Of a DNA stretch of 10,231 bases, positions 6,001 to 10,231 are shown piece after piece. Position numbers: made by a program. Position 1 is the first letter of the stretch. Every line of letters begins with the position of its first letter. Source of the DNA: a virus (Duplodnaviria; Heunggongvirae; Uroviricota; Caudoviricetes); the IMG/VR virus record IMGVR_UViG_2675903289_000006; one strand, written 5' to 3'.

Positions 6001-9000
6001 TGACGTAATCAGCCCCAGCGTGTCCGTAAACTCATAACGGTATTTCACGTTAATGCCCTTCAGGTCATCGCTGCCTGGCATATCAGTATGGGTCTGAAGA
6101 TACCCGGCGCTCAGCGTGGACTGATGTTCAGACGCCCATGCAGGCGCACCGGATACGGCCAGACAGATGGCTGCGGACAAAATGGCTGCACAAACTTTAC
6201 GCATAATTACCTCTCGCTTTTCTGCAATAAAAAAGGCACCATTTCTGGTGCCCGTATCTGGGTTATAAAATTCAGCTAATCGTGATGCCTGCAGTGGCTT
6301 TCTTCATCACCACAACCAGCAAATCGCTGATACTTGCTGTGGGATACCAGCCATNNNCCAGCCATGCCGATACAGAAAACTCCAGCGTCATGTGACCGTG
6401 ACCGGCAGGCATATCAATAACACCCGTATATATCAGCGTATTATCCAGGGTCGTTCGGTTATAAATTTCAGCACCGTTTTTCTTCACTATCAGGCGGCAT
6501 GACGAATAAATATTGTTATTCTTCCGCTCATGTTTAGCACCGCGAAACGCCACCGCGGGAATAACAATTTGCCGATCAAACGGCTGATCGTCATAAACCC
6601 TGACGGTAATGGTCCCTGATGGCCACCTCTCCGGTGCCCGGGAGTCCCGTGGGAAAGGTTTGCCCACTGTTTTAACGAGATCGCCTTCAATCTGGTTCGC
6701 GGACAATTTTCCCAGAACCCGACAGTTCTTATTAATCGTGACGTTGTTGAGCGTCCCGGAGTTCGCGTTCACGTTACCGCTGATATCGGCATTTTTCGCC
6801 GTCAGCCGTCCGCCAGGTGTCAGGGAAAATGCCGGAGGATTACCGCCGCTGGTAATGGTCGGAGCCGTCAGGCATTTCAGGAACACGTCGTTCATGAATA
6901 TCTGATCGCCCTGACCAACAAACATCGGCTTTGTGTTGCCATTCGCAGGATTAATCATCGCAATCCTGTCTGCCGCCAGCAGCACCTGACTCTGCATTCC
7001 TGCTGGCGTATTCTCAATACCGGCACCGATACCCGCAATATAAAGGCGTCCGTCCTTCATCTGTTGCAGCTTCACAGCCCACATGCTGTTCAGGTTATTA
7101 TTTGTATCAACCTGAACTTTCTGTATCTGCTGGATTGCAGCACTCTGATTTTCCAGTTTTTTATTGACGGTTTGCGTGATTTCATTGCTGACATTCGTAA
7201 TGGACGTCCTGATTTCAGTCAGGTCCGGCGCAAGCTGACCGTTATCAATCTGCGTCCACAACTCCTTGCCGAGATGCGTTTTATTGATCAACCCTTTATA
7301 AAAATTCAGATAACCTTCTGCATCATCGCTCGCCCGACCGATGGCCTCCACAAATGCCGATGGATTTCCACCGCTGGTAATGGTGGGGGCCGTCAGGCGT
7401 TTCAGGAACACGTCGTTCATGAATATCTGATCGCCCTGACCAACAAACATCGGTTTTGTGTTGCCATTCGCAGGATTAACCATCGCAATCCTGTCCGCCG
7501 CCAGCAGCACCTGACTCTGCATGCCGTCAGGGGTGTTCTCAATACCGGCACCAATACCCGCGATATAAAGGCGTCCGTCCTGCATCTGCTGCAGCTTCAC
7601 AGCCCACATGCTGTTCAGGTTATTATTTGTATCAACCTGAACCTTCTGTATCTGCTGAATTGCCGCACTCTGGTCTTCCAGTTTCTTATTGACGGTCTGC
7701 GTGATTTCATTGCTGACATCCGTAATGGACGTCCTGATTTCAGCCAGGTCAGGCGCAAGCTGACCGTTATCAATCTGCGTCCACAGCTCCTGAGCCAGAT
7801 GGGTTTTCCCTATCTCGCCTTTGAAAAAATCCAGATAACCGGATGCATCATCACTCGGCTGACCAACAGCCTCCACGAATGCCGATTTGCCAACGGTGTT
7901 CACACTGCGGATATAAAAGTAATAATCATGGCCCGGTTTGATATTGATACTGGCGGCTATCCAGTACAGCGCCGTGCCAAGATAGCGTGCTGTGGTTTCA
8001 ACCTGCCTGATATCCGCAATCCGCTTTTCCGAGAACCAGAACTCAAACTGTACCGTCGGATCATAAACCGCAAGATGCGGCGTGGCGGTTATCTGAAAAT
8101 AGCCCGGCGTCAGCTCAATCCGCGACAGCGCTGCCGGTGCGGCAATCCGGAACGATACCGACGCCGGATCGCCCTGCTGCCCCCACGCATTTACTGCCCG
8201 GACTGTCAGCCTGTAGTTCCCCAGCGCCAGTTGTGTGAAGCGGTAAGTGGTTTCCGTCGTCCGGGCCGTGCTGACCAGCCGCTCACTGCCGTCATCCGCT
8301 GTTACGGTCAGACGGAGCAGGAAGCTCACGCCCTTCACCACCTTCGGCGTGTCCCAGCGCGCCAGCACCTGATATTCCCCGCTGTCTGCGGTGACTTCGG
8401 CAGTCAGGTGCTGCACCGCTGGCGGCGTGACACCATTCACCGTGCCGCTCTGGTCGCCGTCAAAGTGCGCCCCGTTATCCACGATGGCTTCTTTTTCCGG
8501 CACATGCTGCACGGCGGTGATGGCATACGTGCCGTCGTCGTTCTCACGGATACTCACGCAGCGGAACAATCGCTGGTGCAGCGTCGGCAGCTTCAGCCCC
8601 CACACGCTGTATTCAGCAACACCGTCAGGAACACGGCTCACTTTTACCTTCACGCCGTCGGTGACGGACTGGACCTCCACGCTGACCGGATTCCCNCGAT
8701 ACCGACGCCGGATCGCCCTGCTGCCCCCGGGCATTTACCGCCCGGACTGTCAGACTGTAATTCCCCAGCGCCAGCTGCCTGAAGCGGTATGTGGTTTCCG
8801 TCGTCCTGGCTGTGCTGACCAGCCGCTCACTGCCGTCGTCCGCTGCCACGGTCAGGCGAAGNNNNNNNNNNNNNNNNNNNNNNNNNNNNNNNNNNNNNNN
8901 NNNNNNNNNNNNNNNNNNNNNNNNNNNNNNNNNNACCTGATATTCCCCGCTGTCTGCGGTGACTTCGGCGGTCAGATGCTGCACCGCTGGCGGCGTGACA

Positions 9001-10231
9001 CCATTCACCGTGCCGCGCCGGTCACCGTCAAAGTGTGCCCCGTTATCCACGATGGCCTCTTTTTCCGGCACATGCTGCACGGCGGTGATGGCATACGTGC
9101 CGTCGTCGTTCTCACGGATACTCACGCAGCGGAACAATCGCTGGTGCAGCGTCGGCAGCTTCAGCCCCCACACGCTGTATTCTGCAACGCCGTCAGGAAC
9201 CCGGCTCACTTTCACCTTCACGCCGTCGGTGACGGACTGGACCTCCACGCTGACCGGATTGCCACTTCCGTCAACCAGGCTTATCAGCGTGGTACCGGAG
9301 GACGGCAGCGTGATTTCACGGTCGAGCGTCAGCGTCCGGGTCTGGCTGTTCACCGCCAGTACGCGACCACCGGTGCTGATACCGGCATAATCATCATCGC
9401 AGATTTCAATGACATCACCCGGTACATGGCGAAGCCCTTCTGCGCCCACGCTGAAGTCCACGGTCTGCGTTTCCAGCAGTTCCGTTTTAATCAGCCACAG
9501 CCCGGCTCGGTGTGCCTGCCCCCGGCTGGTACAGCCAAAGGCATCCATCTTCGTGACATTACGACCGTAACGGGCAATGGCCTGCGTATCCTCCACAAGC
9601 TCTGTCGCCGTCTCCCAGCCGTTATCTGGGTCAATCCAGTTCACCTCAACGGCATTATGGCGGTCCTTCAGGGCGCTGAAGCTGTAGCGGAACGGCGCGC
9701 CATCGTCCGGCATCACCACATTACTGCGGTTATAGGTCCACACCTTATCCGACGGTCGGTCCTGCACGAACGTCAGCATCTGTCCGTTCCATACCGGCAT
9801 ACAGCGCATCGCCGAGCAGAAATCACTGAGAACATCCCACGCCTTACGCTGTGTGGTCAGGTAAGAGTTACAGGTGATGCGCGGCTCCGTGCCGCCAAAT
9901 CCGTCCGTCACTGACTGGTCGCAGTACTGGCCGATGACATACAGCGCCCATTTGTCCACATCTGCCGCACCAAGACGTTTCCCCATGCCGTAGCGCGGAT
10001 GAGTGAGCATGTCCCACAGACACCAGGCCATGTTGTTGCTGTATGCTGGCTTAAGCGTTCCGTCCCAGATACCGCTGTATTGCCGCGTCTGCGGGTTATA
10101 GTTCGACGGCACCTGCAGAATGCGCCCGCGAAGATGATAATTGCGACTCACCTGCTGGTTACCGAACTGCTCTGAATCCACCTGCACGCCGACCAGCGCC
10201 GTGTTCGGGTAGCACTGTTTCACATCGATGA

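Follow-up and report, generated by a model that had tools for sequence, protein, structure and literature searches.

The apparent duplication and frameshift in the J gene of a lambdoid prophage record is very probably an assembly artefact

Results

The J repeat and frame break in the record

The question raised by this locus is whether a phage tail-tip gene, J, carries a real internal duplication that breaks its reading frame or whether pieces of different J genes were wrongly joined. The window analyzed here is the whole 10,231-nt stretch of IMG/VR record IMGVR_UViG_2675903289_000006, and it contains on the minus strand the 3' two-thirds of a lambda-type J, followed toward lower coordinates by lom, stf, and tfa. 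A stretch of J on the minus strand, 543 nt or 181 codons in length (GNPVSVEVQ...GDPASVS), is present at 8153–8695 and again at 8697–9263, and the only base separating the two units is the N at 8696. The tandem segment at 8153–9263 and the lone N at its junction, both described in an earlier note on this DNA, are thus present in the sequence. The upper unit (8697–9263) is 567 nt long compared with 543 nt for the lower unit (8153–8695), and the excess of 24 nt comes from 73 N at 8862–8934 facing 49 nt in the lower unit, which agrees with the longer N-run already described and represents a scaffold gap estimate. The units mismatch at 28 of the 494 comparable positions (5.7%), compared with the divergence of about 3% given previously, and the differences are unevenly distributed, with 10% in the first 165 nt and 3.6% in the last 329 nt. 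A 543-nt repeat at ~94% identity is far beyond chance. The frame break is likewise observed. The upstream frame, ORF 8625–10223 on the minus strand, continues beyond the N at 8696 through ~23 out-of-frame codons to a stop at 8625, and the downstream frame is that of ORF 6272–8734, which differs from it.

The segment had been called FN3-like, and this description applies to its last ~98 residues only. The Pfam family Ig_J (PF24421, FN3-like) covers the C-terminal ~98 residues of the 181-codon unit at profile positions 1–97 of 104, and the rest of the unit has no Pfam match. The unit therefore starts in a region without a Pfam match and ends 7 profile positions short of the end of the Ig_J domain. 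This partial coverage indicates that the repeat boundaries do not follow domain borders.

The window compared with complete genomes and phages

The window contains six N-runs (302–384, 2934–2954, 5173–5409, 6355–6357, 8696, and 8862–8934) and three direct-repeat sets with spacings of 544/568, 525, and ~1575–1657 nt. Its 10,231 nt cover only ~7,530 nt of the best complete Escherichia coli genomes, and against phage records ~7,200–7,860 nt are covered, always as a single-copy tfa-stf-lom-J arrangement. The BLAST layout of the window on one single-copy reference locus (L001) shows three back-jumps.

Back-jump 1: L001 position 8204 back to 6867, across 237 N
Back-jump 2: L001 position 8757 back to 8223, with no N
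Back-jump 3: L001 position 9566 back to 9024, across the single N

The excess of ~2.7 kb over every complete genome examined equals these three back-jumps, that is, three false "duplications." For the repeat under study, a 2,001-nt query placed around it maps to 1,433 nt, and the difference (2001 − 1433 = 568) is the length of one upper unit plus the N. The region is present in single copy in the best genomes and phages listed as well as in all 16 S. sonnei-type loci.

Two parental prophages in Shigella sonnei

The origin of the window was traced through its two Lom ORFs, one of 160 amino acids at 4065–4547 and one of 199 amino acids at 5605–6204. These lead to two different lambdoid prophages, termed A and B here, which co-occur in complete genomes. 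Prophage A encodes a J protein of 1165 amino acids, a Lom protein of 160 amino acids, an Stf protein of 1027 amino acids, and Tfa. Prophage B encodes a J protein of 1159 amino acids and a Lom protein of 199 amino acids, and its fiber genes are broken by IS elements. On the 4.89-Mb chromosome of S. sonnei 75/02 (CP019689.1), prophage A is located at ~0.42 Mb and prophage B at ~4.62 Mb, i.e. ~0.7 Mb apart, and the two are also found together in JBEAAB010000011.1. Lom_A is found on prophage A of S. sonnei 53G, 75/02, and others; the strain assignments of CP019689 (75/02) and HE616528 (53G) are published (PMC5447701). Both J_A (1165 amino acids) and J_B (1159 amino acids) are called intact and in single copy in all 16 reference loci. 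The two parental J genes (L006 6433–9930 for prophage A and L012 6454–9933 for prophage B) each show the full Pfam set above cut-offs, comprising FNIII-A_GpJ, Phage-tail_3, Ig_J, Ig_J_second, Phage_Tail_Tip, and Ig_GpJ_C, and the composite ORFs of the window are fragments of these genes.

Origin of the individual pieces

The window was compared by BLAST with one reference locus for each prophage, L006 (prophage A of S. sonnei 75/02, CP019689.1) and L012 (prophage B). Coordinates designated A and B below refer to these loci. The resulting pieces and gaps are as follows.

1–5172: piece A1 as a whole, A 14506 to 9376, differing only by Ns and by the loss of 56 nt at 92/93
1–301: piece A1a, DNA downstream of prophage A tfa; 1–92 match L006 14506–14415 and 93–301 match L006 14358–14150, each at 100%
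302–384: spurious scaffold gap of 83 N, whose flanks truly overlap by 8 nt (CCAGCAAC)
385–5172, minus strand: piece A1b, with tfa, the side tail fiber gene (877–3972), Lom_A (4065–4547, 160 amino acids), and the last 555 nt of J_A (4618–5172)
5173–5409: scaffold gap of 237 N between a prophage A piece and a prophage B piece
5410–7361, minus strand: piece B1, with an stf N-terminal remnant, Lom_B (5605–6204, 199 amino acids), and J_B from ~codon 798 to the stop (6272–7361)
7352–8695, minus strand: piece A2, J_A codons 528–975, 100.000% identical over 1344 nt to L006 9357 to 8014
8696: single N, placed as a join where an A contig ends and a B contig begins
8697–8861, minus strand: piece B2, J_B codons 654–708 and the first part of the upper unit, 100% identical over 165 nt to L012 8577 to 8413
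8862–8934: 73 N as a scaffold gap, in place of 49 real nt (B 8412–8364)
8935–10231, minus strand: piece B3, J_B codons ~206–637, 99.77% identical to L012 8363 to 7067

With Ns ignored, all six pieces are 99.8–100% identical to prophage A or B, the exception being the 56 nt that A1a lacks at the 92/93 boundary relative to all six prophage A reference loci. Piece A1b maps to L006 14157 to 9376, and its sole differences, 15 mismatches and one gap, are due to the N-run at 2934–2954, where 21 N stand in place of 15 real nt. Piece B1 maps to L012 10795 to 8844 at 99.85%, with only three mismatches, which are the NNN at 6355–6357. The assignments of the J pieces are clear-cut, as A2 is only 91.1% identical to prophage B, and B2 and B3 are 90.3 and 94.7% identical, respectively, to prophage A. 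Three clustered mismatches of B3 to prophage B, at 9137, 9138, and 9145, carry prophage A bases, whereas G, A, and C occupy these positions in each of the ten B reference loci, as expected from pooled reads of two paralogues.

The lower unit is the last 543 nt of A2 and corresponds to J_A residues 528–708, and the upper unit consists of B2, the 73-N gap, and the first part of B3 (8935–9263). To judge from these matches, the two units are the alleles of two prophages, J_A and J_B codons 528–708, and not two copies within one gene. The earlier note had offered two readings of the locus. The one in which a wrong join fused the J alleles of two different prophages is borne out by the lower unit (100% prophage A) and the upper unit (100 and 99.8% prophage B). 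The other, a disrupted J with a real tandem duplication, finds no support, as the two prophages exist as separate, single-copy loci, each with an intact J, and share the same complete genomes.

Signs of assembly at the joins

Four of the five joins between pieces carry N-runs, with lengths at odds with the true sequence. The 83 N at 302–384 stand where the flanks overlap by 8 nt (294–301 are identical to 385–392, and both map to L006 14157–14150), and within and between the other pieces 21 N replace 15 nt and 73 N replace 49 nt. These wrong lengths indicate that the runs are gap estimates and not masked sequence. The single N at 8696 is placed at a back-jump of 543 nt. To its left the A sequence continues as CTGCCCGTCAACC..., and to its right lies B sequence 543 nt further back; as read from these flanks, the N is a contig join and not an unresolved base inside a gene. 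A lone "n" is how SSPACE records a negative gap in which no overlap is detectable. The only N-free join, from B1 to A2 at 7352–7361, consists of a 10-nt microhomology, AAATGCCGAT, common to B 8853–8844 and A 9357–9348, and its offset of 525 nt produces the "first" false duplication. By default, GapFiller closes a gap if the extensions overlap by at least 10 nucleotides (PMC3446322), and the microhomology at the N-free join has exactly this length. The description of the Sanger Velvet/SSPACE/GapFiller pipeline, which yielded 299 S. sonnei assemblies averaging 405 contigs, cautions that SSPACE and GapFiller work greedily and "can lead to false joins" (PMC5320598). The pieces lie in order of their start position along a common J coordinate, which is what a scaffolder would do when treating A and B as one locus.

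A simple de Bruijn bubble laid out in tandem was also considered and is insufficient alone, as runs of up to 79 nt within the units are identical between A and B and yet did not break contigs. By a rough tally, identical runs of at least 31 nt cover about half of the region, and the position of contig ends in or near such runs is therefore not telling.

Search for the junctions elsewhere

A 60-nt query over the 8696 junction, taken without the N, matches none of 5,426 complete E. coli genomes, and a 300-nt query over the same junction gives only two-piece matches that wrap around one 543-nt copy. The N-free join at 7352 gives one-sided matches only and is spanned by no complete E. coli genome, and neither J junction occurs in any of the 16 S. 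sonnei-type loci. The exact N-free pattern of the 8696 junction was sought in collections of viral, genome, and metagenome contigs and the exact N-bearing pattern in viral contigs, in each case without a match. Look-up of the 820-residue product of the chimeric ORF returned no matching gene product.

Discussion

The apparent J duplication and frameshift is very probably an assembly artefact, in which J pieces of two prophages were misjoined in a scaffold. The window would be a short-read scaffold, most likely from a draft genome of S. sonnei, in which the tail-region contigs of two resident lambdoid prophages were taken for a single locus and arranged along the common J coordinate as A1-N237-B1-A2-N-B2-N73-B3 (A-B-A-B-B). 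At each hand-over from A to B or from B to A, part of J or lom would appear twice, the two versions differing by the 4–12% that separates A from B, because consecutive pieces from paralogous genes overlap in J coordinates. At the hand-over from A2 to B2, J_A codons 528–708 would thus be followed by J_B codons 528–708. The scaffolder would have expected abutting or overlapping contigs, and because the contigs differ, their sequences were presumably not merged and a single N was left; this one extra base would account for the entire "frameshift." The features that mark such a misjoin are found here, namely pieces near-identical to separate loci in finished genomes and N-run joins with lengths that disagree with the true sequence. 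The software route may have been a Velvet/SSPACE/GapFiller-type pipeline, which is consistent with these observations. The real genome is expected to hold one intact copy of each of the two J genes.

One observation runs against a misjoin. Deletion of the N leaves an open chimeric frame of 1318 codons that crosses both false duplications, which is possible because their offsets, 543 and 525 nt, are each divisible by 3. By chance this would occur in about 1 in 9 cases, and a real in-frame duplication would give the same open frame. The uninterrupted frame is a point in favor of a real 181-codon tandem duplication within one J, arisen by unequal recombination of two resident alleles, with the N being spurious or ambiguous. 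Phage tail proteins do gain and lose Ig-like domains, and this variation also speaks for such a reading; if it were true, the tail-tip protein would be lengthened by an additional Ig-like module derived from inter-prophage recombination. This reading is nevertheless highly improbable. The units are not each other's closest relatives, as each matches a different, separately existing prophage (100% for the lower unit, 100 and 99.8% for the upper), and the divergence between the units themselves is 5.7%. No determined sequence spans the copy junction, which is an N with flanks from different loci. Neither the junction nor the arrangement recurs in independent genomes, the junction being absent both from the E. 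coli set of 5,426 complete genomes and from the 16 S. sonnei-type loci, and the breakpoints cut the Ig_J domain. Moreover, recombination between loci ~0.7 Mb apart would delete or invert a chromosome segment and not give a local tandem repeat. The window also requires two further A/B "duplications" together with wrong-length N-runs, so that three independent illegitimate exchanges would be needed, each leaving a local tandem repeat and most of them at Ns.

The two remaining readings, which are even less credible, accept the record in other ways. A J that decayed along with its prophage to a pseudogene by frameshift, a frequent fate in Shigella genomes with many IS elements, would fit the heavy IS disruption of prophage B in S. 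sonnei and the frame as written, which breaks at 8696. This break falls exactly at an N and coincides with a switch from A to B 543 nt further back, not with an indel within one allele, and J_A and J_B are intact at 1165 and 1159 amino acids in all 16 reference loci, which leaves hardly any room for a pseudogene. Deliberate masking of real continuous sequence, with a genuine arrangement, is suggested by the short NNN at 6355–6357 and N at 8696, of which the 3-N run keeps the length of the sequence it replaces. The other runs change length (83 N for an 8-nt overlap, 21 for 15 nt, and 73 for 49 nt) and the two sides of 8696 come from different loci, making masking an almost negligible prospect.

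The repeat exists in the text of the record and not in the organism, and it represents no new biology. The misjoin of two prophages carries a lesson in quality control only. Draft scaffolds of prophage-rich genomes such as those of Shigella and E. coli can interleave paralogous prophage contigs and thereby yield convincing "tandem duplications," "frameshifts," and "chimeric" host-range genes. Mining such records for diversity of J and receptor binding, for domain duplications, or for pseudogenes would mislead, and N-flanked repeats with copies matching different loci are to be filtered out.

Comparison with known systems places the locus as follows. Both reference J genes share the full Pfam set of the tail-tip protein gpJ of phage lambda (TipJ family), and the genes that come after them, lom, stf, and tfa, are those found in lambda. 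What the window holds as a "gene" is put together from two genes of this kind and is not a gpJ variant. Genuine duplications of Ig-like or FN3 domains in phage structural proteins resemble the repeat in its Ig_J content and in a repeat length that is a multiple of three. In contrast to these, the copies in the window are orthologous to two prophages, lie off domain borders, and meet at an N. The closest likeness is to scaffold misassembly of paralogous prophage repeats through false joins by SSPACE and GapFiller. The window differs from this in the unusually tidy A-B-A-B-B interleaving over 10 kb, and the pipeline is one that we infer here. It shares with such misassembly the same interleaving of near-identical loci, the wrong-size N-runs, a single N where an overlap is expected, and one closure on a 10-nt overlap.

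A further apparent repeat in J, around window positions 6827-7651, has its copies offset by 525 nt (175 codons). At 7352-7361, J of prophage B (codons ~798 onward) is joined to codon 975 of J of prophage A with no N at the fusion, and the two sequences share a 10-nt microhomology, AAATGCCGAT, at this point. This join is spanned in no complete E. coli genome, and the apparent duplication is an artefact of the same type as the misjoin at the N at 8696. Within the prophage-B piece, three clustered bases at 9137-9145 carry the prophage-A allele (A, T, and T, where B has G, A, and C), indicating that reads were pooled into one consensus or that the two J genes underwent local gene conversion.

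The apparent lom repeat (3864-4614 versus 5439-6271, with a spacing of ~1575-1657 nt) is likewise explained by the two prophages. It consists of the 160-aa Lom_A on one side of the 237-N gap and the 199-aa Lom_B on the other, each from its own prophage, and does not represent a pair of lom genes within a single prophage. The shorter of the two is located as follows:

Window 4065-4547: Lom_A, short form, 160 aa

At 160 aa, Lom_A is shorter than the Lom of prophage B and of the E. coli references, both of 199 aa, and it lacks ~78 nt that are present in the reference locus L001. The short form is a genuine one and is widespread, with entries in 1,212 of the collection's blocks.

The 83-N run at 302-384 is wholly spurious because the pieces flanking it share a true overlap of 8 nt, CCAGCAAC. 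In the side tail fibre gene (2934-3052), 21 N stand in for 15 real nt, and the run is directly adjoined by a degenerate repeat with a 21-nt period (2999-3052), which probably caused the assembly gap. Between positions 92 and 93, where there is no N, the window lacks 56 nt that are found in all six prophage-A reference loci (14414-14359 in L006, the prophage-A locus of Shigella sonnei 75/02), so that the sequence downstream of tfa carries either a true deletion or a further false join.

In the finished genome of S. sonnei 75/02 (CP019689.1, ~4.617-4.647 Mb; positions 1983-20600 of the prophage-B locus L012), the entire prophage-B tail module occurs twice in tandem. The duplicated module comprises IS, M/L/K/I, J (1159 aa), and Lom (199 aa), and its copies lie 9,417 nt apart with 99.978% identity over at least 9,201 nt. 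This tandem may have arisen through a genuine duplication mediated by IS elements, or it may be an artefact of long-read assembly; the module is single-copy in the other eight genomes returned by the prophage-B search.
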